A DNA stretch of 64,000 nucleotides. It comes from Chamaesiphon sp. Lineage in GTDB: Bacteria > Cyanobacteriota > Cyanobacteriia > Cyanobacteriales > Chamaesiphonaceae. This document shows positions 7,587 through 33,561 of this stretch, piece after piece. How positions within the stretch are numbered: the stretch's first letter is position 1; each line of letters opens with the position of its first letter. Position numbers and translations under genes: made by a program. The notes under the pieces are model-generated. The model had not been told where the DNA came from. It saw only the letters and a program-made list of their open reading frames with translations, and did not search any database. Location: assembly GCA_965246715.1 (NCBI GenBank), contig CBDFFH010000034.1, positions 1 through 64,000 on the forward strand. Reading direction: 5' to 3'.

Positions 7587-7636
7587 AGTGGTGAAGATAG
7601 GTTTGTTCGATATCGAACAGTAAGATCGATGTTGGC

Positions 7637-7656: not shown

Positions 7657-7716
7657 AGATCCATAAATTCGCATGTCATATATTTTACAGACAAACCGTA
7701 GATACTGTCTTGAATG

Positions 7717-8688: not shown

Positions 8689-8719
8689 TAACTGCTTACT
8701 CCACTCCTAACTATGCTCA

Positions 8720-8895
8720 AAGAACTTGACAGACTGTTTAACTAACCTTGTGATTGCAGGCTTTTCGGTAAATCGATTGCCTAAGATACTGTCCAGCTTT
8801 AGGTGTGTCTGTCATCAGTTGTGGGAGCTTATCTACGCAGCAGACTAACAATGTTGTCTAAGGGGCGGGCCAGCTTCACCGATTACTGATGTCCT
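8720..8895 (-). ncRNA. Bridge RNA core (target- and donor-binding loops); the 5' end probably extends toward ~9045
   Basis: Guides CCCGCCCCT (8861-8869), CGTAG (8833-8837), ACAGTATCT (8784-8792) and ACAAG (8747-8751) match target and donor in the expected order, within paired stems. Confidence 0.88.
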
Positions 8896-9054
8896 CACTC
8901 TCACTTTCTCGCATCTGGAGATCGCGCTCTGAAACTGTTATGGTTTCTTTACGCCGATCGATTTATTCCTCTGACTCACTTGGTTTGTGTCGATCTCTTT
9001 GAACTACGTTCGTTCTAAGCATTGTCTATATCGATCGATTACCTACCTCTCTTT

Positions 9055-9060
9055 AAGATA
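9055..9060 (-). promoter_or_regulatory. -10 box TATCTT of the circle-junction promoter (-35 TTGACA at 7715-7720)
   Basis: After circularisation the junction reads TTGACA-17 nt-TATCTT. Confidence 0.8.
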
Positions 9061-9296
9061 CAAGGGGCGGGTTTATGCTATAAATTTCCGCCTAGCACTA
9101 TCAAATCCCAACAAACCCGCCCATCCTCACTAATAATCTGTCGAAGCTTGCGCGCCGCTGAAGCGGCGGTCGATTCCTTCTAAAAAGATCTCAAATGGGT
9201 TTTATAACGTTAGCCTCGATTTGCGGGATAAAATGCCTTGGAAATAGAGGGTTTAGTCCTAAAATAAATCATCCTTAAATTCAGCAACCCCTTTAT

Positions 9297-11177
9297 TTAC
9301 TGTTGCTTCCCGCATTCAGGGCAGAACTTATGACTGACTGTGTGAATGGCTCCACAATTCCCACAATGAGTGGTGGCGGAGCTGCTAGCTGCTGGACGTT
9401 TGGGTTTGGCTAGCCCCATCATTTCCGCATTAGATTTACCACCAGGTACCATCGGATAACAATTTTCGTCGCGCTTGACTTCGGCATTGAGTAACACCGG
9501 GCCATCGTGGGCTAACATTGCTGCGATCGCATCGGGTAATTCTTCACGACTGTTGATGGTTATCCCCTTGATGCCATATGCCTGCGCTAACAGCATAAAA
9601 TCGGGCATGGAAGGTGCCATTTCCGAGGAAGAGTAGTTTTCCTTATAAAAGGCTTCTTGCCACTGTCTGACCATTCCTTGCCAGCCGTTATTGATCACGA
9701 CGATTTTGACATTCAGGTGGTACTGCTTCAGGGTACCGAGTTCTTGCAGATTCATCTGGAAACTGGCATCGCCGCTAATACAGATGACTCGTTCGTTGGG
9801 TAATGCCATTTGTACGCCCATCGCCGCTGGAACGCCAAACCCCATCGTCCCCAGTCCAGCACTCGAAATCCAGTGCCGAGGGAGGTTATTAAGGAATTGT
9901 GCCGACCACATTTGATGTTGACCGACATCGGTGGTGTAATAAGCATCAGGCGCTTGACGGCGACACTCAACGATGACTTCTTGCGGTGCGAGCAATCCTG
10001 CATAGCTGGGAGCAACCAGCGGATTGTCACTGCGCCAACCTTCGATCGTGTCTAGCCAAGGTCTAGTTTGGTCGTCTTTACCACCCAAGCCTAATTCCTG
10101 TACCCTTTGCAGGAGCTGGATTAGCACCTGTTTGACATCCCCCACGATCGGGACATCTGGCGTGCGATTTTTGCCGACTTCAGCGGGGTCGATATCAATG
10201 TGGATGACTTTGGCATCAGCCGCAAATTCATCTAATTTTCCGGTTACACGATCGTCGAATCTCGCGCCGACAGCGATCAACAGATCGCAATCGGTGACCG
10301 CCCAGTTTGCATAAGCAGTCCCGTGCATCCCTAACATTCCAACCGATAGCGGATGCAGTTCGTTAAAGGCACCTTTACCCATGAGGGTAGTAGTAACGGG
10401 GATTTGGAATAGTTCGGCTAATTGTAGGACTTCTTCATGTGCGCTCGCCGAAATCGCCCCACCGCCGACGTAAAGTAACGGCTGCCGACTCTTGGCAATT
10501 AATTGAACTGCTTGATTGATTTGGCGAGGATTGCCACGTACTGTCGGTTTGTAACCTGGTAACTTAACACTGCCAGGAGCGACGGGGGTATAATCGCACA
10601 GTTTTGCCCCGATATCTCTGGGTACGTCGATCAATACTGGCCCAGGACGACCGGAAGCGGCGATGTAGAAGGCTTCAGCGACGATGCGTGACATGTCGGC
10701 TGGATCGCGGACGACATAAGAATGTTTGACAATCGGTAGGGTGATCCCATAGATATCGGTTTCCTGAAACGCATCGGTGCCGATGTTATAACTGGGGACT
10801 TGTCCGGTAACGATTACCATCGGAATCGAGTCCATTTGAGCGGTGGCGATACCCGTGACGAGGTTTGTGGCTCCAGGCCCAGAAGTAGCAAAACACACGC
10901 CGACTCGACCCGTAGCGCGCGCGTAGCCATCGGCTGCATGTGCGGCACCTTGCTCGTGACGCACGAGGATATGCTTGATTTTACCAGCGGCTTCAAAGCG
11001 GTAAATCTCATCATAGATCGGTAAAATCGCTCCACCTGGATACCCGAAAATATGGTGGACACCGTGACGGTGCAAACTATCTAAGAGTGCGTATGCGCCT
11101 GTCTGTTGTTGAGCGACAGTGCTGACCATGGGTAATGGTTGAGTAGTTGCTACTTCAAGAACGCGTTGAAAGACCAC
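9297..11177 (-). CDS. ilvB: Acetolactate synthase large subunit with C-terminal zinc ribbon (start may be 11129)
   Basis: [32 protein letters not shown] ThDP motif; CGNCG..FCPECG tail. Confidence 0.95.
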
Positions 11178-11440
11178 AAATAAACCTCGCGAGTTGGGAG
11201 TTGAAATTAGATATTTTAGTTACTAGACCGATATTCGAGCCGAGCGGACTAAAACTACTGACAAATTTGGTGGATGAAAGATACTGCCGAAGATTTAGTA
11301 ATTTTTAATTATCACCGATCGGCGTTCGGCAAGCAGCGATCGATATATTTATTTGAATTTGGAGCAACAACCACTCACGCTAGACATGGCTGACATAGTT
11401 TAGTCTCGACACAGATACTAAGCTAAATCACGATCGACGA

Positions 11441-12112
11441 TTAACCGATCGCATCTGGATCGCGATCTTCGATCGTAGCACCTCTAGTTTTTAACCAATG
11501 CTCTCGGTAAAATAATTCTAGCTGATTTCCAGCGTTGCGAAATAATTTGACCTGGATGAAAATTAAGCCTTGGAACAGGCGATAAAAGCTGAGACTGACG
11601 ATCGCGACGATCATGCCAGTAGCGGTAGAAATCAACGATTCGCTAATCCCCAACGTGACGTTCGAGCCAGCCGAAGTCCCTAAATCGCCGAGCTTGATCC
11701 CACTCAATGAGCGAATCAAACCTAACACGGTGCCTAACAAGCCTAATAACGGAGCGAGGGCGATAATCGATTCGAGCGTTTTATCGCCTTTTCGCATCGT
11801 CGCTAATTCATCTTCCGCTGAAGCTTCGAGGGCGAGTCTGAAAGTTTCGGGATCGGGATTCGTCCGTTTGAGGGGGGCGTGAAGAAACCGTCCGATCGGT
11901 TTGCGGCGCTCTTGTTTGGCAATTTGGGCGGCGGTGTCCCACTCGTCATTTGCCGTAGCTTCCAAAACGCGCTCGATCGATTCTTCTTCCTTCCTGAGCG
12001 TCCTAAACCAAAACGACAGCCGTTCCAAAATAGTAGCTATAGATAAAATCGATAGAGCGAGCAATGGCCACATCGTCGGGCCACCTTTTTCAAACAATTC
12101 TCTAGCATCCAT
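11441..12112 (-). CDS. MotA/TolQ/ExbB proton channel protein
   Basis: APLLGLLGTVLGLI and ISESLISTATG motifs. Confidence 0.9.
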   Translation of the reverse strand: MDARELFEKGGPTMWPLLALSILSIATILERLSFWFRTLRKEEESIERVLEATANDEWDTAAQIAKQERRKPIGRFLHAPLKRTNPDPETFRLALEASAEDELATMRKGDKTLESIIALAPLLGLLGTVLGLIRSLSGIKLGDLGTSAGSNVTLGISESLISTATGMIVAIVSLSFYRLFQGLIFIQVKLFRNAGNQLELFYREHWLKTRGATIEDRDPDAIG

Positions 12113-12391
12113 AATTAAACAGTTAGATCTTAATTATTACAGTTATTTTGAGGCGAGGCAATCGATCTTCAATCGCTCGACATCCTGAGGATTCGAGCCA
12201 AATGTTTCCTATCTACAGTAACATTAGGCTGTCAACCGATTCTGGATTATTTCTCTTCATAACAGGCGTTGACTCAAACTTGGGAACTATCGATCGTCAA
12301 TAGCCATCAGCACTACCCATCACCACTACCCATGTATGGGATGATTGGTGGTTGAAATTTGACTCTCTTTCTAAAGAGGCTACACTAACGG

Positions 12392-16931: not shown

Positions 16932-17420
16932 TTAATCGATGGGATCGATCCGATAGGCGCGCGGTTTTAATTTACGTTTGAGGATAAAAATCGCACCGAG
17001 CGTCACCAACGAGTAGCCTAACGCACCAGCTGGTTCCGGTACGGCTACTGGGGTCAAAAACCCCCGAATCTCACCACCGGGGAATACCGTGGAATGAATA
17101 TTCACATATGCTCGACCCGACACGATACCGCTAATCAGTGCAGCCTCAGCGCTGGCAATACTCCCCCCATTCGCCGTAATAAAGGCCGGATTGTATGAGG
17201 ATGCTAACCTCAGGTCGAGGGTATTGTTGTAGCTGCCACTGGTTACACCCAGGGGAAAGCCAGCAAACACCGGAGTCGTTGTAGCTACACCAGCAGTCCC
17301 AACACCAGGAATCGCTGTTGCACTATGAATGTGGGCAGTTGTAGTCGGTCCGACTAGTCCGTTGAAGGTTATTTGCACCCCCAAGGTATCCAGCAGATTA
17401 TCGATCGTGACCAAGGCTTG
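16932..17420 (-). pseudogene. 3' portion of a CHRD-domain PEP-CTERM protein, cut off by the intron complex
   Basis: TTAHIH, AYVNIHSTVFPGGEIRG, VPEP + TM + basic tail. No signal peptide; begins exactly at the intron 3' end. Confidence 0.85.
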
Positions 17421-17477
17421 GTTTGAGTCGAGGGCAAGTATTATCTTGCGCCCCTCTCAGTTAGAACTGGACGTGCG
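17421..17477 (-). mobile_element. 3' end (right half of domain V plus domain VI) of an outer group II intron
   Basis: cgcacgtccagttc-taactgagaggggcgcaagataatacttgccctcgactcaaac: DV 3' strand, DVI hairpin and AAC end. Confidence 0.85.
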
Positions 17478-19905
17478 GTAGGGTAGGTAGCCAGCGAGTT
17501 ACCATTACTGGTACTTTTCCAACCACCCCCCTCCAAACTACGCATGACCGTTTCCGTATCACGTAGCTTTCCGGTAATTTTTACGTTTGAAGGCTTCACC
17601 ATCGTAGCGACCATATTGAATTTTCTCGTGGCATTGACGGCAAACTACTAAAGTTTTACGTCTACGTGCCGACATTTTCTTCATCCATTCTGGACGTTCT
17701 TTGCATCCTTGTTGCTTAATATCTGCTAATTTGCGAATATGATGGACTTCAATATTGTCCGTTGCTCCACAAATTTCACATTCTTGGGCTAAAAGGCGTT
17801 GAACGACTTCACTACGTCCGTTCCAGATATGATTTGCCTGATTATCATCAATTTCGACCCACTTGTTCCACTGCAAAGAAACTCCACCAAAATAAGTTTT
17901 CAGAGGTAATTTTCCATCACGTTCCACTGTTACTTGTAGCACCCGATAAGTGCCATCCTTTGTATCAATGGTTGCACGATATCGCTTGTAAATTTTCTGG
18001 CAAGTGGTTTTAAACTTCTTTGCCAAAGTTTTTACGAGGGAAAGCTCTGTAACTCGTTTAAGTAAGGATAGCGTGTGGAGGTTATAAGCCATACGGTAGT
18101 ATTGGACTACTCCTCGATACTCCGCTTGATATTGGCTAACTATGCTGTAGGCATCATCGTTGACCCTTTGTGTCAGGTGTATTGGTTTTCCAGAGCGCAT
18201 GTATTTAAGACAATGGTCTTTAATAACGCTTTTGGGCACCCTTAGCCCCACGCTACCGTTGATACATCTTTGACCACGATGGTCATGTTTATCATCGGCA
18301 TGTAGGATGTGAATTTCGTACCCCAGGAATTTAGCAGCCTCATCCCTTGCATGGCTGATGAGGGTCTTTTCATCACTGAGTTCCAGTTTTAACTCATCAC
18401 GTAAAAACGTGGCGATTTTCTGTTTGATTTCCACAGCTTCAGATTTTGAACCAACTACTCCTAACAAGAAATCATCGGCATACCTTGTGTACCAAAGGCG
18501 ACGAAAGTTTGGGTCATTGGGGTCACGGGACGGAATTGACTGTGCCTGTTGGTTCAGCTTCCGTGCTGCTTCCAGTTTTCCAGCTTTTCGGGCAATTGAT
18601 GCAGCCTTAGTTAAGTCTCTGTACGGAGGGTAAACAATCCTTCTAAGACCTCGTGTGTATGCTGGTATTAGTTCGCATTCGACGTATTTGTCCAGTTTGT
18701 CTAGTACCAAATTGGAAAGTATTGGGCTTACCACTGCACCCTGCGGAACTCCGCTATATGTGGAGTTGTATTTCCAGTTTTCCAAGTAGCCTGCATCAAG
18801 CAAACCCTTAATTAGTCGGATAAAGCGATTGTCGTGGATTTTATCTTGTAGTATTTCCACCAGAATAGTATGGTCTATTCTGTCAAAACACGCACTAATA
18901 TCTCCTTCGATAAACCACTTTGTAGCTCGACCTTTTTGGGTAATTTCTTTCAAGGCTGTGTGACATCCACGCTTTGGTCGGAAACCGTGAGAATGTTCGC
19001 TAAATTGCGGTTCATAGTAAGCTTCTAGTATCGAACGAATTACTTCTTGAAGTAATTTATCAGACCAAGAGGGCATACCAAGGGGTCGTAATTTACCGTT
19101 TTTCTTCGGGATATAGGTACGTCGCGCTGGTGTCCATCTATAACGCTCAGATCTCAGAGCCTCAATGATGGTATTAATTTTCTCCAGGGACATTCCATCT
19201 ACCGTTTCCTTTGTAGCACCGGGTGTCATTGCACCTGTGTTGCTGTTCAGCTTGGCGTAGGCGCGTAAGTACAAATCTGGGTGATATAGCAGTCGATACA
19301 AATCTTCTACTGGCAACCCACGTTGTCCGCGTTCACGTATGATGTTCAGTATCGTTTCGGCTGTTCGCATCTCGCGTACCTCTCGATTTCTGTTTCATCT
19401 TTATTACCTGTTCTACTTCGCCATGTAAACGGCTCTCCCGTTTGCCCTGGTGGGGCGTTACTCCCACGACTACTATTAGAACTCCGTCACCATAGGACTC
19501 GCGTCCCTTAGGCAATCCCATGTTCCGTCACTGATGAACGTATAAAGAACGACTTAGGTTCCTACTCATATCCTTGAATAAGTTCATTACTTATTGCTCA
19601 CTGGTCAGGGTGTACCATTAACGAAAGTTGAATTAATGGCTACCAGTGACATCGGTGTACAAACGTGATACCGAAGGATGTGCAGTTCCACCTCTGGATA
19701 TTGGGGTTCAGGCAGTTTAGCTTTAACCATATCGTTCAGGCGTTGCAGAGCCATAACATACACGTTTTCTGTTATTCTCCGCTTTACGAACATGCTCTTG
19801 TCCCCTTGCCCTTTCGGGTTTAGGTAAGTTGTTCGCCTTGGAGTCAGTTACCCTGAACTCCAGCCAACTGAGTTGGCAATTCAATCAGTGCGTACCACGG
19901 CGCAC
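17478..19905 (-). mobile_element. Intact group II intron (LtrA/IIA-like) inserted in domain V of another intron
   Basis: 5' GTGCGCC at 19905. DV ggaaagctacgtgatacggaaacggtcatgcgtagttt. 3' end CCTACCCTAC at 17478. Confidence 0.92.
17559..19370 (-). CDS. ltrA: Group II intron reverse transcriptase/maturase with HNH endonuclease
   Basis: RPLGMP, HGFRP, GVPQG, YADD, C-terminal CEICG..EVHHIRKL..RKTLVVCRQCH. Confidence 0.95.
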   Translation of the reverse strand: MRTAETILNIIRERGQRGLPVEDLYRLLYHPDLYLRAYAKLNSNTGAMTPGATKETVDGMSLEKINTIIEALRSERYRWTPARRTYIPKKNGKLRPLGMPSWSDKLLQEVIRSILEAYYEPQFSEHSHGFRPKRGCHTALKEITQKGRATKWFIEGDISACFDRIDHTILVEILQDKIHDNRFIRLIKGLLDAGYLENWKYNSTYSGVPQGAVVSPILSNLVLDKLDKYVECELIPAYTRGLRRIVYPPYRDLTKAASIARKAGKLEAARKLNQQAQSIPSRDPNDPNFRRLWYTRYADDFLLGVVGSKSEAVEIKQKIATFLRDELKLELSDEKTLISHARDEAAKFLGYEIHILHADDKHDHRGQRCINGSVGLRVPKSVIKDHCLKYMRSGKPIHLTQRVNDDAYSIVSQYQAEYRGVVQYYRMAYNLHTLSLLKRVTELSLVKTLAKKFKTTCQKIYKRYRATIDTKDGTYRVLQVTVERDGKLPLKTYFGGVSLQWNKWVEIDDNQANHIWNGRSEVVQRLLAQECEICGATDNIEVHHIRKLADIKQQGCKERPEWMKKMSARRRKTLVVCRQCHEKIQYGRYDGEAFKRKNYRKAT

Positions 19906-20758
19906 AGTTTCCCTTCACTACGCTCCTGGTTCACATTTACTTAACAAGCCTTACCACCCTTTAATGGGCTGCTTGCCTTTCTGACTCCCACTTCACCGTG
20001 TATGGCTTGGTGTTGGTGACATTCTCGATGTAAAACTTCAAGATTGGACAGCTTCCAATTGATATGGTTTCCGTCTTTATGATGAATTTCTACAATGTCC
20101 CCAGGATAGAACTTTAATCCACAGGAAGTACAATTGTGTTTTTGTTTGCTCAGAAGATTTACAGTCATCCCGTTATAGTTAGAGTTTTCCCGTTTTGACC
20201 AGTAAATCATGTCTCCATCAAAAGGTGATTTATCCCCTTTTACTTTGATATGACTATTTACTTTCCATGAAATTTTGGGAAATGCTCGTTCAATAACCTT
20301 GTTGGTTTGGTGACGATTGTATCTGCCTTGCTTGCGTATGAATTTCCATACCCATAATCTTAATGACCATAAGTCATGACTACTCATGTCGCAGTATTTG
20401 TGGTAATTTCTCCATCCTCGAATAATAGAACCGCATTTATCGATTCTTTCCTCAAGATTGAATCGACTATCTTTCATCATCTCTTTGACTTTTGCCTTTA
20501 CTTTCTTTGCAGATTTACGACTGGGTGTAGAAATAAATTTGTCATTGGTTCTGACAGCAAATGTCCATCCAAGGAAGTCGAAACTTTCTGTACTTTGTAC
20601 TAATTTGGTTTTTGCTTCTTTTACTTTTAACCCTCTTATTCCTAAGAATCGGTCAATTACTTCTCGCAAGGCTATAGCATCGTCTTGGGGCTTGAGAATA
20701 AACACTACGTCATCTGCATAACGGAATCCGTTTATTGCGTCGATACCTCTTCCACCCC

Positions 20759-22269
20759 CAGGTTAAACGCACTTAAATTTGTTATTACTAAAAACTTTGA
20801 CGATCGAATGAATAAATAGCATCTAGAAATCTTGTAATTACTGCTAGGTAATAGTTAGAGCTAATTAACTATGTTAGAATTTAACAAATTTAATTTAACT
20901 AAAATGAAGCTGAAGCCAAAATATAGTATTATAGAACACTTCGAGAGTGTAGAAGACTACAGGACAGAGCGCGGGAAAAAGCATAAATTAATTGATATCA
21001 TCACCATTACCATTTGTGCTGTAGTATCTGGAGCTGATACATGGATAGATATAGAAATTTATGGTTTGGCGAAGAAGGAATGGCTAGGTAAATTTTTAGA
21101 GTTGCCGCATGGTATTCCATCACATGATACATTTGGAAGGGTATTTTCACGAATTAATCCTGAAGAATTTCAAAAAAGTTTCCTGAGTTGGGTTAAAGGA
21201 ATATCTAAAATAACAGCAGGAGAAATAATTGCACTTGACGGCAAACAATCTCGAAATTCAGGAGATAATACTAATGGACAAGGTGTACTAAATACTGTTA
21301 GTGCATGGGCTGTAACTAATAGATTAGTATTAGGACAGAAAATGGTTGAGGGCAAATCTAATGAAATCACAGCACTTCCTGAATTAATTAAAGTTCTAGA
21401 TTTAGCCGGATGTATAGTTACCATTGATGCAATGGGATGTCAAAGAGAAATAGTAAAAAAAATTGTTGAAAAAGATGCAGATTATGTAATTGCTGTGAAA
21501 AAGAATCAACCAAGTTTATACGACCAAGTAGAAAGGCTATTTAAACAGGCTATTGCAACTGGTGGCGCAGGTTTCAATCTGAGTGATTTCAGGACTAAGG
21601 AGATTAATGGGGGTAGGGAAGAAATCCGTAATTATTTAATGATATCAGATGTTGCCGATCGAATAGATTCATCCCATAACTGGATGAAATTGACTAGTAT
21701 TGCGATGGTTGAATCAGTAAGAACTATTGGGGATAAAACCACCATAGAGACTCGTTATTTTATTAGTAGTTTAGCTAATAATGCCAAGAGAGTCGCCGGA
21801 GCAATTAGAGGTCATTGGGGGATAGAAAATTCACTTCATTGGGTACTTGATGTTTCTTTAAGAGAAGATTATAGTCGAATTAGGAAAGATAATGCGCCAG
21901 CTAATTTTGCAGTATTACGGCACATAGCTATTAACTTAATTAGTCAAAATAAAAGTCGGAAATTAAGTGTGAAAAGCAAGAGATTTCTAGCAGGTATAGA
22001 TGACAAATACTTGGCTGAAATTTTAGAAGGTATTTTATAATTTACGAACTATTGGTTGAAATCAAATTACTTCTATAATATATCGACGATTTAAGTTATT
22101 CCTTCGATCGACTACTTTATATTGCATTAAATTAAATAAATATTGCCTTATACTATACATCAGTTCTAATTGAATTCGTCGTAAATGTATTTAGTTCATA
22201 AATACTGCTTAAGTTGTATGTATTATTGAATTCGATCGCCTCATATCAAGTTTTGATGCGTTTAACCTG
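20759..22269 (+). mobile_element. ISAs1-family insertion sequence
   Basis: TIR caggttaaacgca at both ends; 10-bp target duplication cttccacccc (20749-20758 and 22270-22279). Confidence 0.95.
20895..22040 (+). CDS. ISAs1 transposase (start approximate)
   Basis: GIPSHDTF, IALDGK, KSNEITA, TIDAMGCQ, HWGIENSLHWVLD. Confidence 0.95.
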   Translation, partial: LTKMKLKPKYSIIEHFESVEDYRTERGKKHKLIDIITITICAVVSGADTWIDIEIYGLAKKEWLGKFLELPHGIPSHDTFGRVFSRINPEEFQKSFLSWVKGISKITAGEIIALDGKQSRNSGDNTNGQGVLNTVSAWAVTNRLVLGQKMVEGKSNEITALPELIKVLDLAGCIVTIDAMGCQREIVKKIVEKDADYVIAVKKNQPSLYDQVERLFKQAIATGGAGFNLSDFRTKEINGGREEIRNYLMISDVADRIDSSHNWMKLTSIAMVESVRTIGDKTTIETRYFISSLANNAKRVAGAIRGHWGIENSLHWVLDVSLREDYSRIRKDNAPANFAVLRHIAINLISQNKSRKLSVKSKRFLAGIDDKYLAEILEGIL

Positions 22270-23526
22270 CTTCCACCCCTGATACTTTTACATCTGACTT
22301 GGTGTCCAAGATCTTCAAGACCATGTAGGCTGATATTGGCAAGTAAGGGGCTGATAGTCCCGCCTTGAGGTGTTCCTGACTCTGAGATAGGGAACTCTCC
22401 TCTAACTCCGGCTTTGATAGCTCTGAAGAGTCCGGTTTTTGCTGCTCTTGGTAGTTGAACGCTTCGCATAATGAATTTGTGGTCGATAGCGTTGAAACAC
22501 CGTTCGATGTCCAGTTCCAGGATTCTTTTCTCAATACCTTTTTTTCCAAGGTTGTCGAATATCCCTTTTTGAACATCGTGACATGAAGACAATCTTTCTC
22601 AGCTTTCGCCAAGGGATTATTTTCCATTTATCGCTCGGTTTTAATTCCGTCGTCATAACATGATTTACGCATTGAGAATCTGTCTATGTAAACCGCGCCC
22701 AGTTGTCTTCAAGTCCTTACCTTTCAGATTTTCGAGCGCATCTTACCAATTTCCCCCGCTAAACCTTATTTAAGGGCTTCACTTCTTCTAGGGGCATATC
22801 CTAGATTCTCAGAAGAAGGTATTGGAAACTGTTTTATTCGTTCCTCAGTTTAGTTATTTTGCGGTTTTAGGTTCCTTCAATTCACCCACCATTTCCCAGG
22901 ATTACAGATGTTAACCAGAAACTCTGTGGGTATATTCATCCTTATCGGATTATTTTGTGTGATTATCTAATCTTTCGATTAGGGGGCCTTGGATGCTTTT
23001 TTAGAAGGTTCAGACTTAACTTAACCGTTACACGCTTACCTAACGGGTATCAGCCTGTCATTTGACTTTATGGCTTCGTTATTCCCGTCCTATTCCCAGC
23101 TTCATTTTCAGAGTTTTATTCTCTGTCCATGTGGGTAGGTCTGGCATCACTCCATCCCTAGAGGGTAGGACTTGCTTACTTCGTATTTTCGGCTCACCTA
23201 CACTAAACTGAAGTTTTCCTTACTTTCTTTAAAGTTTCAATTGAAACTAAGGCGGTGTAAGGAATCTTATCCCCATAACTAGTGTTATGTTTCAAAGAAA
23301 CGAGCCGCACCTGATTCCGCCCTGTTCCCAGCTTCACTCTCACGAATTCCGAGTCGTGTCGGTGTGGGCAGGTAAGGATTCACTCTTGAGTTTAGAGGGA
23401 GGGACTTGCACCCTCATCAATCGGACAGTTCAAGCCTTAGAGTGCTACATGTCTGGTAGCAAGCTTGGAAGTACTATGTACGGACTTTCACCGTGATTCA
23501 TACTTCAACGAATCGCACTATTCTAA

Positions 23527-23958
23527 GCCATTAAGATCTTCGATTGGAATGGAGATGGTTTTAACGACATCTTGATGGCGGATGGTGGAAGTGGTTTGGA
23601 TATCAAACTCAACCAACTCAAACCATTACCTCCTACCACCCCCACTACCTCACTGCTAAAGACCACATTTGTATATCACTATGCAACACCCGATAGCACT
23701 GTTATCGCCAAGAAAACTCAGGCCGATATCGTCGTTCGAGGTGGGGTTCCCACTCCAGATATCGTCCAACTGTCTTTACCGATGGCGCAGTCACGACTCA
23801 AACTGTCAGTGTCACCGTCAATAACGTCGCACCCACGATCGTCTCAATTATCCAACCACCGCCAATTAACAAAAGTCAAGCAGCAACATTTACCGCCACT
23901 GCCAGCGATCCTGGTATTGCCGATAAAATGGAAAATCGATTCTCTTGCCAAAGGCTAA
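23527..23958 (+). pseudogene. Remnant of an FG-GAP/PKD-repeat surface protein
   Basis: IFDWNGDGFNDIL (FG-GAP/VCBS motif), then in another frame DGAVTTQTVSVTVNNVAPTI..FTATASDPG (PKD-like). No intact start. Confidence 0.7.
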
Positions 23959-24028
23959 GCCAACTAATAAATCGACCGATCGAACAAGCTGATAGTATAC
24001 AATTACTCGTAAGTTCAGTAAATCCCAG

Positions 24029-25408
24029 ATGAAAATCCTGCATCTATCTGATATCCATATGGGTAGCGGTTTCGGTCACGGTCGGATCGATCCAGAAACC
24101 GGACAAAATACCAGACTTCAAGATTTTACAAAATCCTTGTCGCGGGCGATCGATCGGGCGGTTTCCGAACCAGTCGATTTGGTTTTATTTGGTGGCGATG
24201 CCTTTCCAGATGCCACACCTGCACCTTACATTCAGCAAGCTTTTGCTGCGCAATTTTATCGTCTCGTCGATGCAAATATTCCCGTCGTCTTATTAGTTGG
24301 CAACCACGATCAACACGCCCAGGGGCAAGGTGGCGCTAGTCTATCGATTTATCGATCGCTGGGAGTTCCCGGCACGATCGTGGGTGACAAGATCGGGACA
24401 CATACGATCGCGACTCGGAGTGGGGAGATTCAGATCGTAACGCTACCGTGGATCAATCGATCGACGCTACTTACCCGCGAGATTACCGAAAACTTATCGA
24501 TTCCAGAAGTAAATCAGCTATTGCTCGATCGACTTCAGCCATGTTTAGAAGGTGAGATCCGCCAGCTAAACCCAGAACTACCAACGATCTTATTGGCGCA
24601 TCTGATGGCAGATAATGCCACGCTGGGAGCTGAAAAAATGCTCGCAGTGGGGCGTGGATTTACGATTCCCTTGGCGTTTCTGACGCGTCCTTGTTTTGAC
24701 TATGTGGCACTCGGACACGTCCATCGCCACCAAAATCTCAATAAAACTAATGACCCCGCAGTCGTCTACCCTGGTAGCATCGAGCGGGTAGACTTTAGTG
24801 AAGAGAAGGAAGATAAGGGGTATGTTTTAGTTGAGATCGAACTTTCTGCGGAAGAGATTAATAAGAAGAAGTTTGCTACTACATGGGAATTTTGCCCGTT
24901 GCCCGTGCGGACATTTCGGACGATTAAAATCGATGTCTCCAAAAGCGAACAGCCACAGTTGGAAATCTTAGCTGCGATCGCAAAAGTCGATATCAATGAT
25001 GTTGTTGTCCGATTGATTTATCAACTCAGTCCCGATCGGGTGGAATTAGTGAATACTGCGGGTCTCCATGAAGCATTGAGTACCGCGCATCATTATACGA
25101 TCCAAGCGGAGTTAATCAGTCAACTCAGCAAGCCCCGATTGCCAGAACTCGGCTGTAGCGTGGGCGATCCGATGGTGGCACTCTCTACTTATCTCGATAA
25201 TCGTCCCGATCTTAAAGATATCTCTACAGCGATGCTCGCTGCTGCTGAGGAACTGATGTCAGGCGACGGACATGCTAATAGTTATGCCGATCGAGTATTG
25301 CTAGATCTCGAATCTTCGCCCGATCCGTTAGCCATTCATCCCGCTAAAACCGATCTGGATCGATCGTCGATCGAACAGACGGCTGACGGACAATTAACTT
25401 TGCTGTAA
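24029..25408 (+). CDS. sbcD: Exonuclease SbcD (Mre11-like)
   Basis: LSDIHMG, GGDAF, VGNHD, ALGHVH, YPGSIERVDFSE. Confidence 0.93.
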   Translation: MKILHLSDIHMGSGFGHGRIDPETGQNTRLQDFTKSLSRAIDRAVSEPVDLVLFGGDAFPDATPAPYIQQAFAAQFYRLVDANIPVVLLVGNHDQHAQGQGGASLSIYRSLGVPGTIVGDKIGTHTIATRSGEIQIVTLPWINRSTLLTREITENLSIPEVNQLLLDRLQPCLEGEIRQLNPELPTILLAHLMADNATLGAEKMLAVGRGFTIPLAFLTRPCFDYVALGHVHRHQNLNKTNDPAVVYPGSIERVDFSEEKEDKGYVLVEIELSAEEINKKKFATTWEFCPLPVRTFRTIKIDVSKSEQPQLEILAAIAKVDINDVVVRLIYQLSPDRVELVNTAGLHEALSTAHHYTIQAELISQLSKPRLPELGCSVGDPMVALSTYLDNRPDLKDISTAMLAAAEELMSGDGHANSYADRVLLDLESSPDPLAIHPAKTDLDRSSIEQTADGQLTLL

Positions 25409-25416
25409 GCAAATGT

Positions 25417-25598
25417 GGCGTTGCTGAATATGGGTATGATTTTTTGTAGGGGTGCTCCTGTCTTGTCGTTTTTTTATTCGGGGGGAACCCCCGAATAAAA
25501 ACGCCGCTTGTGGGTACCCTGAATCGATGCGGGGTAAGCACGAGGCATTACCCCTACAAAAATTATTTGTGCGTTTCATCCCTTAATTCAGCAACGCC
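25417..25598. mobile_element. MITE with IS1-like ends, carrying a REP and a nested CT mini-element
   Basis: ggcgttgctgaat ... attcagcaacgcc; ends resemble the IS1 TIR at 52452/53278. Confidence 0.75.
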
Positions 25599-25756
25599 GC
25601 CTTTTTTTCGATTGCCACCCATCTTCAGTTGGTAACGCCATTGAGTTATCGATTAACCCCAGCATTTTGGATATCGATTTAGACTAGAGATAGAGATCGG
25701 GCAACTCCCGACATTTGCCGAACGAACGGGATACAGCAAAGCTATCACAGGGATCT

Positions 25757-27406
25757 ATGGCTGAAATCGTGCAATCTAGCTCGCGTCGATTGGAAATTCT
25801 CGATGTGTTGCTGCGGTATGGCTGGGACTACATGCGACAGCTTCTGACGATCGGGCGCGCCGACAAGCCAGAAGTCCCGCCACCAGACATTCTCCGGAAT
25901 ATTCTCACCGACTTGGGGCCAGTCTATGTCAAATTGGGGCAACTTTTGAGTACGCGTCCCGATCTCCTTCCACCAGAATATATCGATGCACTCAGTTCGC
26001 TGCAATCAAATGTACCCGTAGTTCCACCTAGCGAGATTGCCGAATTTATTCACATCCAATTACCCCAGCCAGCGGAGGAAATCTTCTCCCAGATCGATTA
26101 TCAAGCGATCGCGGCAGGATCGATCGCCCAAACCCATCGTGCAACTCTAAAAGATGGACAGTTAGTAGCGATCAAAATCCAACGTCCTGGCATCGATGTG
26201 ACGGTAGCTAGGGATATCGCCCTCCTCAAAAAAACTGCCGAACTAGTCTCTGGAACTGACTTTGGCAAGCAATACGATATCGTCTCGCTCGCCGAAGAAT
26301 TTAGCACCGCGCTCAAGGCGGAATTAGATTTTACGCAAGAAGCCAACTATACCGAACAACTTCGCAGTAATCTTGCCAAGAGTAGCTGGTTCGATCCCAA
26401 CCGCATCGTCGTACCGAGAATTCACCGTCATTTGACGACACCAAAAGTCCTGGTGATGGAGTGGCTGGATGGGGTGCCGATTCTGACAGCTCAGATGGGG
26501 GGTAAGGAATATAATGGTGATGTCGATGCCGAAAAGCGATCGCTGACGACATTAATATTTCGCGCATTTTTTCAGCAATATTTAGTGGATGGTTTTTTTC
26601 ATGCCGATCCGCATCCAGGCAATTTATTTTATCTCAACGATGGTCGGCTCGCAATTCTCGATTGTGGCATGATGGGGCGGCTCGATCCACGTACCCAGAC
26701 GGTACTCATCGAAATGGTGTTAGCAATTATCGATCTCGATGCTCAAAGATGCAGCCAGCTAACGTTGCAATTAGCCGATGCCACTCAACCAGTGGATCTG
26801 TTCCAATTGGAACGAGATTATGAGCGATTGCTACGGAAATATGGCAATTTGAGTCTAAATAATATTAATGCTAGTCAAGCATTTTATGAGATTTTACAAG
26901 CGGCGCGGAAAAATTATCTGCGGTGGCCAAGCAATATTGGATTGTTTGCAAAATCTTTAGCTAACTTAGAAGGTGCTGGGCGACAGTTTTATCCAGCGGT
27001 AAACGTGATAACCGAGGTGAAACCGCTGATGACAGATATGTTTCAGCGTCAATTATTAGGTGATAATCCATTACAATCGGTGCTAAGAACTGCCTTAGAG
27101 TTTAAGAATCTATCGTTAGAATCGCCTCGGCAATTTAGCTTTCTACTCAATCGTTTGAGTTCGGAAACATTACGATTAAATTTAACGATTCAAGATTTAG
27201 ATCTACTGCGGTTGAGTTTGGATGACGCTGCCAATCGTCGATCGTTTAGTACGTTAGTAGGCTCGTTAGCGATCTCAGCCGCGATTATTTCGACGGCGGC
27301 ACGCACGCCAGAGTTGCAGTTACTCAGTAATATTTTATTTGGGGTGGCAAGTTTGCTGGGGTTATGGCTGATTTGGAAAATTTTGCGGTCGGGAAAATTG
27401 AAATAA
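25757..27406 (+). CDS. ABC1/UbiB-family atypical kinase
   Basis: LGPVYVKLGQ, AAGSIAQ, VAIKIQRP, FFHADPHPGN, LDCGMMG. Confidence 0.92.
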   Translation: MAEIVQSSSRRLEILDVLLRYGWDYMRQLLTIGRADKPEVPPPDILRNILTDLGPVYVKLGQLLSTRPDLLPPEYIDALSSLQSNVPVVPPSEIAEFIHIQLPQPAEEIFSQIDYQAIAAGSIAQTHRATLKDGQLVAIKIQRPGIDVTVARDIALLKKTAELVSGTDFGKQYDIVSLAEEFSTALKAELDFTQEANYTEQLRSNLAKSSWFDPNRIVVPRIHRHLTTPKVLVMEWLDGVPILTAQMGGKEYNGDVDAEKRSLTTLIFRAFFQQYLVDGFFHADPHPGNLFYLNDGRLAILDCGMMGRLDPRTQTVLIEMVLAIIDLDAQRCSQLTLQLADATQPVDLFQLERDYERLLRKYGNLSLNNINASQAFYEILQAARKNYLRWPSNIGLFAKSLANLEGAGRQFYPAVNVITEVKPLMTDMFQRQLLGDNPLQSVLRTALEFKNLSLESPRQFSFLLNRLSSETLRLNLTIQDLDLLRLSLDDAANRRSFSTLVGSLAISAAIISTAARTPELQLLSNILFGVASLLGLWLIWKILRSGKLK

Positions 27407-27451
27407 CTGTAACGTGAGTTAACCTAACTCACGTTACAGTTATTTCAATTT
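27395..27451. repeat. Perfect 27-bp inverted repeat with a 3-nt loop (possible bidirectional terminator)
   Basis: aaattgaaataactgtaacgtgagtta-acc-taactcacgttacagttatttcaattt, between convergent genes. Confidence 0.85.
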
Positions 27452-27565
27452 GAGGGGTGAATTACGATTCACCCTTCAAACTATTCGATACTTGACGTTG
27501 CTAAATTGTGGTATAAAACACTTTCTGAATTCAGCAACGTCTGATATTTAATCTAGCCGATCGAG

Positions 27566-29362
27566 TTATGGTGTCTCTTTCTTCGGTTTGTAGGTAGAAA
27601 TCACCTCTAATTCTTTGAGTTGTTTGGCATCGACACTTGCAGGAGCATTGGTGAGCAAACATTTAGCTTGCTGTGTCTTCGGAAAGGCGATGACATCGCG
27701 GATCGAATCTTCACCAGCTAATAACATTACCAACCGATCGAGTCCGTAAGCAATTCCCCCATGTGGGGGCGTACCATACTCAAATGCTTCGAGTAAAAAG
27801 CCAAATTTATCGTTAGCTTCAGCTTCAGATAAACCGATCGCACTAAATACTCGCTCTTGAACTTCGCGTTGATGAATTCGGACGCTACCACCGCCGATTT
27901 CAGTACCGTTGAAGATGATATCGTAGGCTTGCGCGCGCGCGGTTGCTAGATCGTCGATATCATCCGGATGCGGTGCGGTGAAGGGGTGATGGAGGGCTTC
28001 GAGTCTGTTCTCATCGGCATTCCACTCGAACATCGGGAAGTCTGTCACCCAGAGCAGATTGACTTTATTGTCGTCAATTAAACCGAGTTCGCGTCCGATG
28101 ACTAACCGCAACCGATCGAGCGTTTTATTCACCATCGCGGCATCGCCAGCAGCAAAGAGTAATAAGTCGCCAGGTTTAGCACCTGTCAGCGTTAATAACT
28201 GTTGCTTGCTTTGAGCAGATAGCGAATCTTTAATCGCACCGATCGTTTCTAATTCATTCCCTTCGAGGACGCGAATATAGGCTAAACCTTTAGCACCTGC
28301 TTCGCTGGCTTCTTTAAATAAGTTACCACCGGGTTTGATCCGTACATTGGAAATAGTTTCATTACCACCAGGAATCGGTAAGATTTTGACAATGCCACCA
28401 CTGGCGATCGCACCGGAAAATACTTTAAATTGGGAATCTTTAAAGACATCGGAAACGTTGACTAATTTCAGATCGAAGCGGGTATCGGGCTTATCACAAC
28501 CGTACAGATCCATCGCTGCGGCATAAGTCATTCGAGGAAATGGACGAACTAATTCTACACCTTTAATTTCCTTAAAGATTTGCCAGACTAATGCTTCATT
28601 GAGATTGATGATTTCTTCCTGCGACATGAAACTCATTTCCATGTCCAATTGGGTAAATTCTGGCTGTCTGTCAGCGCGAAGATCTTCGTCGCGGAAACAA
28701 CGCGCGATCTGATAATAGCGATCGCATCCAGATACCATCAATAGTTGTTTGAATAGCTGTGGCGACTGTGGTAGCGCAAACCATTCACCTAAATTCACCC
28801 GACTGGGGAGGATAAAGTCGCGCGCGCCTTCTGGGGTAGAGCGGGTGAGGATCGGTGTCTCGATTTCGATGAAATTTTGGCGATCTTCCAGGAAGCGACG
28901 AATGGTTTTAGTGACTTGATGACGGAGTTGGAGATTCGTACTCATCCGTTCGCGGCGCAGATCGAGATAGCGATACTTGAGGCGTAAATCCTCGCGCACC
29001 GACTCATTTTCGGTTTGAGATACTTGGAATGGTAATTGCTTGCGAACGCTATTTAAGACCTCGATTTGCTCGGCATAAACCTCGATTTCACCCGTAGGGA
29101 TCCGCGAATTAATCGATTCATCGGGACGTTGATAAACGCGTCCGGTAATTTTGACGACGTACTCGCTGCGCAGCGTTTCGGCAAGATGGTAGGATTCAGG
29201 CGTGCGAATGGGATCGCTGACTACTTGCACCGAGCCGGATCGATCGCGGATATGGAGAAAAATTACCCCCCCAAGATCGCGGCGACGATCTACCCATCCG
29301 CAGAGAGTAATAGTTTCGCCAATTTGTTCGGTGCGGATTGTGCCGCAATAATGGGTTCGCAT
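27566..29362 (-). CDS. aspS: Aspartate--tRNA ligase
   Basis: [47 protein letters not shown]. Confidence 0.98.
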
Positions 29363-29658
29363 ATACTTTGACTAAATCTAGTTCGATAATTACTAAGAGC
29401 TTGTTGATTTTTACCCTGAAGTGACCTGGGGAAAATCTATTTTACTCCCGCGTGCAACTACTACACTTGGCGATCGAGGATCTCCGCTAAGTCAGTTACA
29501 AAATTGCGACGGAAGTGGAAAATTCTTTCCCATTATCTACCATTCTTTGTCCCACGAGCGAAGATTTTGGGGAAGTGGCGAGAGCTGAATGTGGGTTCGC
29601 GATACCTTGCCTGGATTATTGTGGATTTTGAATTGATGTTCCTGACTGGAAGAGGAGA

Positions 29659-30339
29659 ATGGCTATCTTAGCGCAGAATATTCATGTTTGGGAGGTAGAC
29701 CTCAATCTTACTCAGGAATGTATCGAGGCGTTGAGTTGCTGCTTAGACGAGCGGGAACGACAGCGTGCTGCTAAATTCATCAATCCGACTCATGGCGATC
29801 GGTGGACGGTCGCACGGGGCTATTTACGCCAGATTCTCAGCCAGTATGTAGATCTTACCCCATCGCAGATCGTCTTTAGTTATGGCAAGCAAGGTAAGCC
29901 AACAATTGCGGGCAACCCGATTCAGTTTAATCTCTCGCATTCTCGCGATCGGGCTGTATATGCCATTAGTGCCAAACATCCAGTTGGCATCGATCTCGAA
30001 TACATTCATCCTCTAGCTGCGGCAGATTTAGTCGATCGCTTTTTTTCACCAGCCGAATGCGCGATTTTTCATAGTTTACCAGTATCGATTCAGCAAGCTG
30101 CTTTTTTTCATGCCTGGACGCAAAAAGAAGCCTATCTCAAGGCTGATGGTACCGGACTGACAACTCCATTAGATCGAATTGAAGTCTCGATCGATCCGCG
30201 CACTCCCGCGCAAATTATCTCCACACCAACAGCTGGAAGTTGGCAGCTCCACAAACTAAAGCTCTCCCCCGAATATGCTGGTGCGATTGCGATCGGGGGA
30301 GAGTTTGCGGCGATCGAATATCATCGCCAAGTCAATTAG
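29659..30339 (+). CDS. Sfp/HetI-type 4'-phosphopantetheinyl transferase
   Basis: GKP, FNLSHS, VGIDLE, WTQKEAYLKA. Confidence 0.92.
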   Translation: MAILAQNIHVWEVDLNLTQECIEALSCCLDERERQRAAKFINPTHGDRWTVARGYLRQILSQYVDLTPSQIVFSYGKQGKPTIAGNPIQFNLSHSRDRAVYAISAKHPVGIDLEYIHPLAAADLVDRFFSPAECAIFHSLPVSIQQAAFFHAWTQKEAYLKADGTGLTTPLDRIEVSIDPRTPAQIISTPTAGSWQLHKLKLSPEYAGAIAIGGEFAAIEYHRQVN

Positions 30340-30357
30340 TTTGGTAACACCATGAAT

Positions 30358-31359
30358 TTATAATTCAGGATTCATCGCGTTGCGCTGACGATCTAACATA
30401 TGTTCGAATTCGATCGCAGCGGCGACCGCAAACTGGATCGCGCCTAGAATCCAAAAGACTTCCAACATAAACCCTCCTTGGTAATCTTTAATCTGATTTC
30501 CTGCATAGGCAAACCACATATCGGCAATGTAGTAGCAAATAATCGCTTGAGCATTGATTTGCCAAGCACGGCTGAGTCGTCCGCCCCAAAAAGCTAAAAT
30601 CATTACTGCTGCTAGGGCGAATAAGACGACATCACTCCAAACATAGAAGGCATTTAAAGTCGAACCATAGGGTTTGAAGATCCCATCGAAGTACATCACC
30701 CATCCAGGGGCATCGGTCTTTGACCCGTCTGGCTTAGTTGACTCTGGTGCGAGACTCGGCGCTGATGGCGCGGAACTGGCTGGTTGGCTTTGGATTTGAG
30801 TGGTAACATTAGCAGGTGCTACTGTCGCTGCCAGACTCGCTGCTGGGGGCTTGAGAATCCACACGACGATCGTGGCTGCATAGAGCGCGATTCCCACCAC
30901 GATCGCCCATTGATATATTTTTAGCCGCACATGTCTAGTTGCGATGGCGATAACCATCGCTAGCGACAGACAAACATAAAAGATACAGAAAAACGGATCG
31001 CCCAAACAGCCAGTAGAATTCAGATGCCATACTAATTCCCACGAACTAAAGAAAATATTGCCGATCGTATATGAGATGAGGGCGATACCCATCAATAACC
31101 ACACTTTACTCCCACTGGGCATTCGGCTGCTCAAGCCATTGCGGATACATAACAATCCAGCGATGAGCGACGGAATATTTTGCAGAATATAAGCTGTCAA
31201 CAACCGATACCATAACGGTCGATCTGTATTTTGTGGCGAACCACTAAAAAACATGTAAACCACTAGCGATAAGGCAGACCAGCCCCATGCCCAATAGATG
31301 ATGTTTTGTTTGCGCCACAGGTGTTCCCATTGGCCCAGTATGCGTGCAAAATTTAGCAT
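30358..31359 (-). CDS. Hypothetical multi-pass membrane protein
   Basis: 333-aa ORF with about 8 hydrophobic segments and a Pro/Ala/Ser linker. Confidence 0.7.
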   Translation of the reverse strand: MLNFARILGQWEHLWRKQNIIYWAWGWSALSLVVYMFFSGSPQNTDRPLWYRLLTAYILQNIPSLIAGLLCIRNGLSSRMPSGSKVWLLMGIALISYTIGNIFFSSWELVWHLNSTGCLGDPFFCIFYVCLSLAMVIAIATRHVRLKIYQWAIVVGIALYAATIVVWILKPPAASLAATVAPANVTTQIQSQPASSAPSAPSLAPESTKPDGSKTDAPGWVMYFDGIFKPYGSTLNAFYVWSDVVLFALAAVMILAFWGGRLSRAWQINAQAIICYYIADMWFAYAGNQIKDYQGGFMLEVFWILGAIQFAVAAAIEFEHMLDRQRNAMNPEL

Positions 31360-31634
31360 GTATTTATCTAACTAATAACTATATAACGCCGCTCGATTCG
31401 CCACCAGAGATGCTACACGAGTGCAGTATTCTCTGAAGAGCGGATCGATCCGCTACGATCTCTCTTAATTATTAGTATTCCCAGTTCGCAACTAATTTAT
31501 TCTAAAGATTACCAACTTTATTGTTGGCACAGCCTCTGTGTTGAGTCAGCAGCTCGATCTTAAGGGAAACGCTTCTTACAACGAGAATTATCGAACTCAT
31601 TACATCATCTATATATTTCTGAGCTAGCTAAATG

Positions 31635-32303
31635 CTACTGTTTTTTCAGCCAGAGTTGAAACTCTTGTTTGAGGTGCGGTGACAATCTATTTTGTAAGTC
31701 AATTAGTAGTTCGTTAGCGTAGTTTTTGCCTAGATATTTCCCGCCTAGTCGTTGGATTTCCAGATATAATTTGGCTACTTGCGATGCGGTGAGCGTGGAT
31801 AATTCGAGCGCTCGATCTGGTTGCTTCGCCGCCAGAATTGTTGCCGATAGGTAGGTAATCGATCGAACATTGGGAATGCTTGATAATATTTCCGTACCAA
31901 ATGCGGTAGCTCGCTCTGCGCCTAACAATTCGCCCACTTCAGTCCATAAGCCATCGAAGAGGCAAAGTTGAGCGCGAAAGACAGCTTCTAATCGCTCTTT
32001 TTGTGGGTCGATCGATTGCGGGAAATCGATCTTCCGCTCCATCCACACCGAATATTGCTGAGTATTTTTGACAATCAAACATCCTGTTCCTTGTTCGTCA
32101 AAATGTCGGCTTAACCCCTGTGCTGCTTGTAATTCACCCGAAGAGAAAGTCTGAACTAGTTCGTACTGACGATCTCGATAATCGAGCAACGATATTTGTC
32201 GCTCGGGGTTTTTGGCATCTGGACGCTGCGAGATCCGCACATCCTGAATATTAACGATATTCATAAGATCTATTAAATGCAATAATTTATATACCATAGA
32301 CAA
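31635..32303 (-). CDS. Hypothetical cyanobacterial protein (possibly Npun_F0813-like)
   Basis: QDVRIS..LLDY....YELVQTF..CLIV...QYSVW pattern; family assignment from memory only. Confidence 0.6.
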   Translation of the reverse strand: MSMVYKLLHLIDLMNIVNIQDVRISQRPDAKNPERQISLLDYRDRQYELVQTFSSGELQAAQGLSRHFDEQGTGCLIVKNTQQYSVWMERKIDFPQSIDPQKERLEAVFRAQLCLFDGLWTEVGELLGAERATAFGTEILSSIPNVRSITYLSATILAAKQPDRALELSTLTASQVAKLYLEIQRLGGKYLGKNYANELLIDLQNRLSPHLKQEFQLWLKKQ

Positions 32304-32330
32304 ATAATTCTACTTTAGTATTAGGCCGAC

Positions 32331-33218: not shown

Positions 33219-33561
33219 TGAGATCGATCGCTTCCAATCTTACGCCCATATCGGTCACCGCAACCATTAACTAGCAATCGAGCAAAAATTTCAGGGTACC
33301 CACAAGGGGCACTCCTACTCAAATCGTCTGTAGGACTATATCGCTAACTATCTCAAAATTCCTCGCGTGCTGAGACGCGATCGCGATCGAAACGGGGTAA
33401 CCTATAGTAACGGTATTTTAAATGTTGTAAACTTTTCTTACAACTTGCCATGTTAATAAACAGGGTATATCATTGAGATAATGAGTATTTATACCTACCT
33501 ATGTTTGGGTACCATCGTTGTTTGGCTGCGAAGTATCCAGCTCGATCCTTAGCGATTATCT

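Follow-up and report, generated by a model that had tools for sequence, protein, structure and literature searches.

A Hybrid Group II Intron around an Intact Domain V-Homing Intron in a Chamaesiphon Assembly: Structure, Possible Origin, and Relatives

Introduction

This study concerns a nested group II intron of the cyanobacterium Chamaesiphon sp., located between positions 16,932 and 23,958 of a stretch of 64,000 nucleotides (the window) of contig CBDFFH010000034.1 (assembly GCA_965246715.1), hereafter contig C34. The element is three introns deep on the minus strand and comprises the 5′ stub of an intron A, the 5′ part of an intron B, an intact intron C, and the 3′ end of an A-type intron. 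The outer intron is a hybrid with a mismatched domain V, and this hybrid is very probably real. Furthermore, the halves of two host genes, CHRD and DUF4351, are exchanged in the assembly between C34 and a second contig, C2, and this exchange of flanks is probably real as well. We lean toward the reading that the window holds one of two identical hybrid blocks and that the shared intron C let recombination delete, copy, and flip DNA. Recombination between intron copies and nested intron arrays are already known, and the chimera alone is of moderate interest; the stronger result is a clade of mobile introns, found in at least six phyla and including intron C, which lands on the most conserved piece of group II ribozymes.

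The Hybrid Domain V

An earlier note on this DNA, made from the sequence alone, described an outer domain V with unmatched arms, and the mismatch is real: between 19925-19906 and 17477-17464, pairing extends to 5 of 8 positions of the basal stem and 4 of 6 of the upper stem. On contigs C43 and C39, where this B-type left arm faces its own right arm, pairing is complete (8/8 and 6/6), and the fold energy is -10.1 kcal/mol for the hybrid domain V vs -17.2 kcal/mol for the left arm with its own right arm. Removal of intron C does not restore the outer domain V of the window, whereas it does so at C39, C43, and C20 (own register). The note had allowed for an uninterrupted homolog with a naturally mismatched domain V; this is ruled out, because the C-free homologs of intron B in sequencing runs X2 and X3 and in genome G015 carry a matching right arm, and the mismatch is therefore not native to intron B.

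Both the right arm and domain VI are of A type; on contig C9, the 5′ and 3′ ends of this family are seen together. Among the five full copies of intron C in the assembly, the left arms are B-type at four and A-type at none, and the right arms are B-type at two and A-type at two. Re-pairing of contig ends cannot remove the hybrid, since four B-type entries face two B-type exits and two partnerless A-type exits. The outer element is, as the note had it, a hybrid of two host introns (A and B) with flanks from two loci, although the recombination account given there is incomplete. The reciprocal junction that it predicted, with an A-type left arm, intron C, and a B-type right arm, is absent from all five copies. 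Contig C2 bears this hybrid too, so that the mismatch in domain V and the exchange of flanks must have arisen separately. Catalysis by the outer hybrid is predicted to be severely impaired.

Exchange of Gene Halves between the Window and Contig C2 in the Assembly

The partner locus in the same assembly, C2:23923-28494, has the same order of parts, but a different 5′ end of intron A (A2, that of the window being A1) and a different A-type 3′ end. The 3′ exon of the window, which the earlier note took for a headless CHRD gene on the minus strand, is indeed such a gene (Pfam CHRD, E 5.6e-15); it starts at 17420, not 17414, and its PEP-CTERM tail was read by eye and not flagged by Pfam. The predicted partner with the CHRD N-terminus exists and ends at C2:23922. 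Joined in frame (offset 0), the 5′ exon of C2 and the 3′ exon of the window give a full signal-peptide/CHRD protein. In G011, a genome of the same genus in 3 contigs that is 91-96% identical in the compared region, the CHRD gene is uninterrupted and lies between fur and a photolyase-family gene.

The C2 3′ exon consists of the C-terminal 129 codons of a DUF4351 gene (Pfam DUF4351), beginning with LGKG. In DUF4351 paralogs, W-F-R-L/M/I precedes the LGKG motif, and the last 13 exon bases of the window read W-L-R-I. The 5′ exon had been described as an FG-GAP/PKD remnant on the plus strand; a remnant does lie there, but the last 11-13 nt are a stub of the DUF4351 gene. The FG-GAP_3 match (E 0.01) is below the cut-off, and a PKD-like paralog is present on contig C36. 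The fragment is likely the tail of a large PKD gene downstream of the intron on C2. A native role of the remnant as 5′ exon was rejected, since the G011 sequence departs from that of the window 11 nt short of the intron; G011 matches the remnant only up to 23530, with adjoining DUF4351 end fragments, and the 5′ side of the window and the 3′ side of C2 are neighbors in G011. A Gp49-like/HTH pair at L001:10436-11208, probably a toxin-antitoxin module, lies between the DUF4351 tail and a truncated PKD protein of 782 aa.

The outer 5′ and 3′ exons of the window do not rejoin into one sequence, and their partners sit on C2. Because the CHRD halves join in frame and the DUF4351 stub continues on C2, both genes are exchanged: the CHRD and DUF4351 halves have changed places between C2 and C34 in the assembly. 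Both host genes are dead. The synteny comparison proposed in the earlier note gives the same picture, in that the two CHRD halves are contiguous in G011 and the two other flanks are neighbors there.

The note had further regarded ATGGCTT of the 5′ exon, recurring at 23070-23076, as a candidate exon-binding site 2 (EBS2) and as a sign that this flank is native. The 7-mer does recur there. Its position lies, however, in a domain I stem of intron B, whose start at 23310 is a further intron 5′ end that the note did not mention. The match is no sign of a native flank, as the C2 copy has the same 7-mer beside a different outer exon. A 7-mer is expected 0.06 times in 688 nt, and the correspondence of ATGGCTT with AAGCCAT is a chance match. 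The EBS2 role was rejected on account of the stem position and of the location of the EBS1 of intron B elsewhere. The EBS1 loop was located by alignment of domain I of intron B with relatives of known exons; near the end of domain I, this loop pairs 5-6/6 with its own exon in all five distinct relatives in which a script found it. The script found no loop for intron B, for another C43 intron, and for one intron of genome G024. The EBS1 of intron B, CTGGTT at 22918-22913, was read by eye and pairs with the intron's own exon, AATCAG. The guide sequences of A1 would lie downstream of the insertion site of intron B, as they do, by eye, in the A-type intron of C43, and would be lost here.

Proposed History of the Hybrid Blocks

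Every copy of intron C is inserted at one and the same point of domain V, and both loci share the order of A stub, B part, C, and A-type end. A1 and A2 are identical at 73 of 114 positions (64%) and then at 84 of 84 (window 23394-23311) directly before intron B; none of the other A-type 5′ ends compared exceeds 77/84. With the insertion sequence (IS) of the window set aside, intron B is identical between the window and C2 over 1,968/1,968 nt, despite its broken reverse transcriptase (RT). The five full copies of intron C are identical except for 4 single-base homopolymer insertions in C2.

A single crossover between two copies of intron C was rejected as the whole story, because no mirror-image junction exists at the five copies. 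C2 has the same hybrid and not its mirror image, and a deletion plus a copying event is therefore needed. Furthermore, the 84/84 tract and the identity of intron B, together with the shared deletion, point to a deletion between two tandem copies of C at one of the loci, the other having received a DNA-level copy. The proposal of the earlier note that two copies recombined and rearranged the chromosome is supported in part; one exchange is insufficient, and a deletion and a copying step have to be added. Its corollary of independent domain V insertions is borne out, since intron C has entered domain V independently many times.

We infer six steps. A-type introns would have homed into the CHRD gene and into a DUF4351 gene. 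Intron B may then have homed into domain I of one A intron, and intron C into domain V of both B and A. Recombination between two direct copies of C would have deleted the 3′ end of B and the middle of A, leaving the hybrid domain V. DNA-level gene conversion may have placed this block in the other A intron, from at least 84 nt upstream of B to a point in or just after C. A crossover within the shared block, possibly the same event as the conversion, would have inverted about 325 kb. Finally, the IS would have entered the copy in the window, later than the copying, because it is present only there.

The order of segments along 800 kb of G011 is C2:1-23763, C34:17420-1, C2:336171-268691, later C34:156315-23530, and then C2:33220 onward, and the first base of C34 abuts the last base of C2 in G011. 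If the end of C2 joins the start of C34, the two blocks face in opposite directions across 325,097 nt plus a gap, and the swap is therefore a viable inversion. On this contig order, the two hybrid blocks are likely inverted about 325 kb apart in the chromosome.

Genuine Exchange or Assembly Artifact

Several observations weigh against this history. The two sites have a direct orientation in G011, so that a further inversion, with a breakpoint within about 214-269 kb of C2, must be assumed. Intermediates of the B and C insertion, deletion, and copying steps were not seen, and an intact A1 in the DUF4351 site was not found (0 in Joint Genome Institute (JGI) metagenomes; 0/400 other cyanobacterial genomes). 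No read or contig spans the repeat; the 24 listed runs are contigs of short-read type, of which 4 were examined. Both rRNA operons inside contigs (5.45 kb) have reciprocally swapped flanks relative to G011, and neither genome G020 nor the topology over 800 kb of G011 provided a tie-break on these flanks. The nested array on C43 lacks the closing 3′ end of its outer intron, and contig C32 ends inside the same repeat; the C32 5′ exon joined to the C43 last exon gives no open frame. Furthermore, non-matching arms also occur in metagenome contigs (1 of 9 two-ended loci that fit the left-arm rule described below, and 3 outside the rule), and assemblers or recombination therefore make such hybrids elsewhere.

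Mis-assembly across the repeat, named in the earlier note as the main alternative, remains the main rival, and some mis-join of the assembly is a quite substantial possibility. In its more specific and rather unlikely form, the hybrid block would be real at both loci and the genes would not be swapped in the cell, the assembler having crossed inside the 3.3-kb repeat formed by the 3′ part of B and by C. A clean two-sided swap is what such a mis-join would give, no data span these 3.3 kb, and the rRNA operons show the same reciprocal swap. Shorter repeats are, however, well resolved in the assembly: the target duplications agree at 12 of 14 full IS copies, and the host arms at C20 are correctly paired across the 2.4 kb of intron C. 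The resulting arrangement is moreover a viable inversion, and the lineage has many other breakpoints relative to G011, which argues that real rearrangement is common in it. Homopolymer slips private to the C2 copy suggest separately assembled long-read copies. Run X1, which may be the source sample, contains exact intron B at a depth of 10-12.6 vs 93 for the IS of about 15 copies, so that two copies of B fit, and it has both IS-bearing and IS-free forms of intron B. Such intron repeats yield exactly these hybrids in assemblies, which is a warning for assembly work.

That each locus holds two tandem copies of intron C, with the 3′ end of B and the middle of A between them, and that the assembly collapsed these copies into an artifactual hybrid, is improbable. 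The assembly keeps no contig <6.5 kb, a 62-deep unitig of GAAAGT-type entries into intron C in X1 could hide A-type left arms, and the EBS1 and EBS2 of intron C match a canonical A-type arm more closely than those at which it sits. The collapse would, however, have to happen twice, an assembler that phased intron C correctly at C20 would have needed reads running from B through C to the A end, and no spacer of this kind turned up in the assembly.

Upstream co-conversion is known from yeast mitochondria. It is very improbable that retrohoming of intron C copied the block here, the RT reading an unspliced precursor through C and on into B and A upstream and the cDNA recombining with the other A intron. 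In favor of it, the tract that was copied extends from intron C in the upstream direction only and stops 84 nt into shared A sequence, and intron C has an intact RT and endonuclease; this route needs, however, about 2 kb of extra cDNA, explains neither the hybrid in the donor nor the flank swap, and runs against the description of bacterial retrohoming as free of exon conversion (PMC2504315).

A Clade of Introns Homing to the Domain V Loop

Intron C is inserted 2 nt after the domain V tetraloop at 5/5 copies in this assembly and at 2/2 in G011. In GTDB genomes, the best 79 of at least 560 related loci were kept; with locus L011, both ends were called at 46 of 80. A quick tree was computed from 73 proteins, with 7 of the 80 loci (among them L041 and L057) left out for short matches, and it places intron C in a clade of 21 rows (SH-aLRT 97) from Cyanobacteriota, Deinococcota, Bacteroidota, Planctomycetota, Chloroflexota, and Acidobacteriota. 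Among the clade loci with both ends, 15 of 16 have the domain V loop as their site (13 as called by script and two, L020 and L024, as read by eye), the exception being L042. By contrast, none of the 30 two-ended loci outside the clade lies at this position (L091 is a weak script match without the triad), and three lie at the 3′ foot of domain V. These three more distant relatives of intron C (L047, L086, and L096) occupy two separate places in the tree. At L028, L029, L034, and L035, the domain V of the host is atypical in having a GAGA loop and a 3-nt bulge. The record of L027 is labeled Rickettsia typhi and is a contig of a freshwater-type metagenome-assembled genome; the label may be wrong.

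A metagenome scan with the first 22 nt of intron C, which is blind to the target, returned 59 loci with 46 distinct upstream junctions; 36 of the 46 conform to a left-arm rule for domain V, to which random positions conform in 0.4% of cases. Many of the metagenome copies are 0.7-kb forms without a gene. This form is very abundant (depth 840 in X1; also in X2) and is likewise found in domain V (L257-L293), with tandem gene-less copies on one contig (L274-L277).

Among these introns, EBS1 tracks the host loop, UUUC occurring with GAAA and UCUC with GAGA. At 15 loci, with four EBS1 positions set by hand and related loci that are not independent, EBS1 forms 80 of 90 pairs vs 70.8 in shuffles (p 0.001); the signal of EBS2 is weak (63/90 vs 58, p 0.07). 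As 3,810 GAAA sites in the genome reach 9/12 EBS pairs, pairing alone is not specific enough. Intron C likely finds its site by EBS1-tetraloop pairing together with recognition by its protein of other domain V features or of the hairpin shape. Its own domain V (17549-17560) pairs 4+2 with its guides vs 5+4 and 5+3 at occupied sites, and this low pairing may limit self-insertion.

Intron C has a GUGYG 5′ end, domains V-VI, and an AY 3′ end, and it encodes an RT-maturase with an endonuclease. It is predicted still to splice and move, and its five near-identical copies would imply recent movement.

Relation to Known Systems

The intron Ll.LtrB with its protein LtrA (IIA, mitochondrial-like (ML) class) has an RT-maturase-HNH layout, an EBS1 hairpin with adjacent delta, and a 3′ end AC. 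Intron C appears to share these features; Ll.LtrB homes to a relaxase gene, unlike intron C. The Pfam AI2M-like HNH and Intron_maturas2 matches of intron C are compatible with the ML class. From such features, intron C appears to be IIA/ML-like and intron B IIB1-like, and intron A would be IIB2-like by the 5′ motif given in PMC4649490.

In Thermosynechococcus elongatus, an exon swap between TeI4f and TeI4g has been read as homologous recombination (PMC2882425). As in that case, multi-copy cyanobacterial introns here have the 5′ and 3′ exons of one gene on two intron copies, and in the assembly the halves of both CHRD and DUF4351 flank two different copies; the product here, unlike that of TeI4f/TeI4g, has a hybrid catalytic hairpin (PMC2882425). 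The twintrons of TeI3 in TeI4 likewise have identical inner copies in diverged hosts, although TeI3 enters at the start of the host open reading frame in domain IV, whereas intron C lies in domain V of hosts of different subgroups (PMC2882425). In Methanosarcina acetivorans, repeated insertion in nested arrays is balanced by deletion through recombination (PMC4424553). The lineage of M.a.I5, UA.I3, P.l.I2, and B.th.I3 homes to the RT motif of other group II introns (PMC4424553, PMC2504315). The relatives of intron C similarly share a conserved target within other group II introns, but the M.a.I5 lineage targets the RYADD codons of the RT gene and has no endonuclease, whereas intron C targets the domain V loop and has an HNH endonuclease; intron C thus works like the M.a.I5 lineage and is not a member of it. 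Two relatives of intron C (L057 and L059) follow a 5′ exon whose last codons are the RYADD motif of an RT gene; in this they resemble the M.a.I5 lineage, from which they differ in protein group.

In the psbF twintron of Euglena gracilis, domain V of one group II intron harbors a second group II intron (PMC8393795); this is a single degenerate chloroplast case, whereas intron C is an intact bacterial retroelement with a clade-wide site. In Trichodesmium, Tr.e.I7/Tr.e.I8 comprises a B1-type intron in domain I of a B2-type host starting GUGCGAUUC, in a coding gene (PMC4649490). Intron B inside intron A has the same arrangement; Tr.e.I7/Tr.e.I8 is complete and splices in order, whereas the twintron of the window has lost the middle of its host (PMC4649490). 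The available parts of PMC8919778, PMC3534033, and PMC5572947 hold nothing further on nested or domain V introns. A bacterial lineage homing to domain V was not found in the literature searched, and subscription papers, the group II intron database, or supplements may list members.

A target in domain V offers a supply that never runs out and leaves the host silenced until intron C splices out. Such homing also creates identical repeats at equivalent positions of unrelated introns, which offers a route, open to testing, by which hybrid ribozymes and large inversions could arise; it further provides a natural case of how an intron protein recognizes a hairpin-like DNA site. As a tentative and somewhat doubtful extension, the clade may act as a shuffling hub, an identical 2.4-kb cassette joining the 5′ module of one intron class (target guides and RT) to the 3′ module of another (half of domain V, branch helix, and 3′ exon) and rearranging the chromosome. 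Most hybrids would then die, like that of the window, near-consensus arms would pair and give new working introns, and the window locus would be the process caught in the act.

Features of the Window Element

The coordinates are collected in Table 1. The insertion sequence, which we take to belong to the ISAs1 family, is flanked by a 10-nt target duplication (20749-20758 and 22270-22279) and is missing from the C2 copy of intron B. The RT frame of intron B is broken by an internal deletion near 22584 that is common to the C2 copy.

Table 1. Features of the nested intron and its flanks (window positions unless a contig is named).
Feature	Position	Strand	Remarks
3′ exon	16932..17420	-	C-terminal 162 codons of CHRD protein, PEP-CTERM-like tail
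Domain VI and 3′ end of A-type (IIB2-like) intron	17421..17463	-	Type matches A-type intron on C9 and C2 copy
Domain V right arm of A-type intron, without its own left arm	17464..17477	-	
Intron C, 2,428 nt, intact, IIA/ML-like	17478..19905	-	Rfam RF00029 at 17478-17571
Intron C protein, 603 aa, RT, maturase, and HNH endonuclease	17559..19370	-	Pfam RVT_1, Intron_maturas2, AI2M-like_HNH
EBS1 of intron C (ACUUUC), complementary to domain V loop GAAAGT	19623..19628	-	Hairpin loop; covariation with target
Likely EBS2 of intron C (ACUGCA), complementary to domain V upper stem	19681..19686	-	Weak
Domain V left arm of intron B	19906..19925	-	C-free homologs run on into matching right arm
Intron B (IIB1-like) from domain I to half of V, without its own 3′ end	19906..23310	-	
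ISAs1-type insertion sequence, 1,511 nt	20759..22269	+	Pfam DDE_Tnp_1_assoc, DDE_Tnp_1
EBS1 of intron B (CUGGUU)	22913..22918	-	Pairs with AATCAG just upstream of 23310
AAGCCAT, in a domain I stem of intron B	23070..23076	-	
Intron A1, 5′ 208 nt, starting GTGCGATTC	23311..23518	-	
DUF4351-family gene stub, 11-13 nt, codons W-L-R-I	23519..23531	-	Paralog context; not at corresponding place in G011
Decayed FG-GAP/PKD fragment, common to window and G011	23530..23958	+	
rRNA operons with swapped flanks	C38:100039-105492 and C49:88742-94196		Third operon of G011 at contig end

Other Nested Introns and Repeats in the Assembly

A four-deep array occupies C43:34301-43584 (L003), with an A-type intron outermost and intron C innermost, in domain V. 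Its introns start directly after domain V of the previous host (36507, 38797), the outer intron has no domain VI, and the last exon is a decayed GAF-like fragment. A second, B-like group of introns lies at the domain V end or the V/VI linker of other introns (C43:36507, C43:38797, C39:118582, and L101), and its EBS1 pairs with exons at these places. On C9 (C9:158839-155697, L002), an A-type intron that carries an IS-like gene in its domain I has entered domain V of another intron 2 nt downstream of the site of intron C, a separate insertion into this hairpin. The RT gene of another intron contains a 194-nt 3′ fragment of intron C at C17:36067-36260, and the host intron at C39:115800-116140 has no 5′ part. 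Contig C18 has a 12-kb terminal repeat (1-12220 and 22759-34981) and looks like an over-circularized plasmid.

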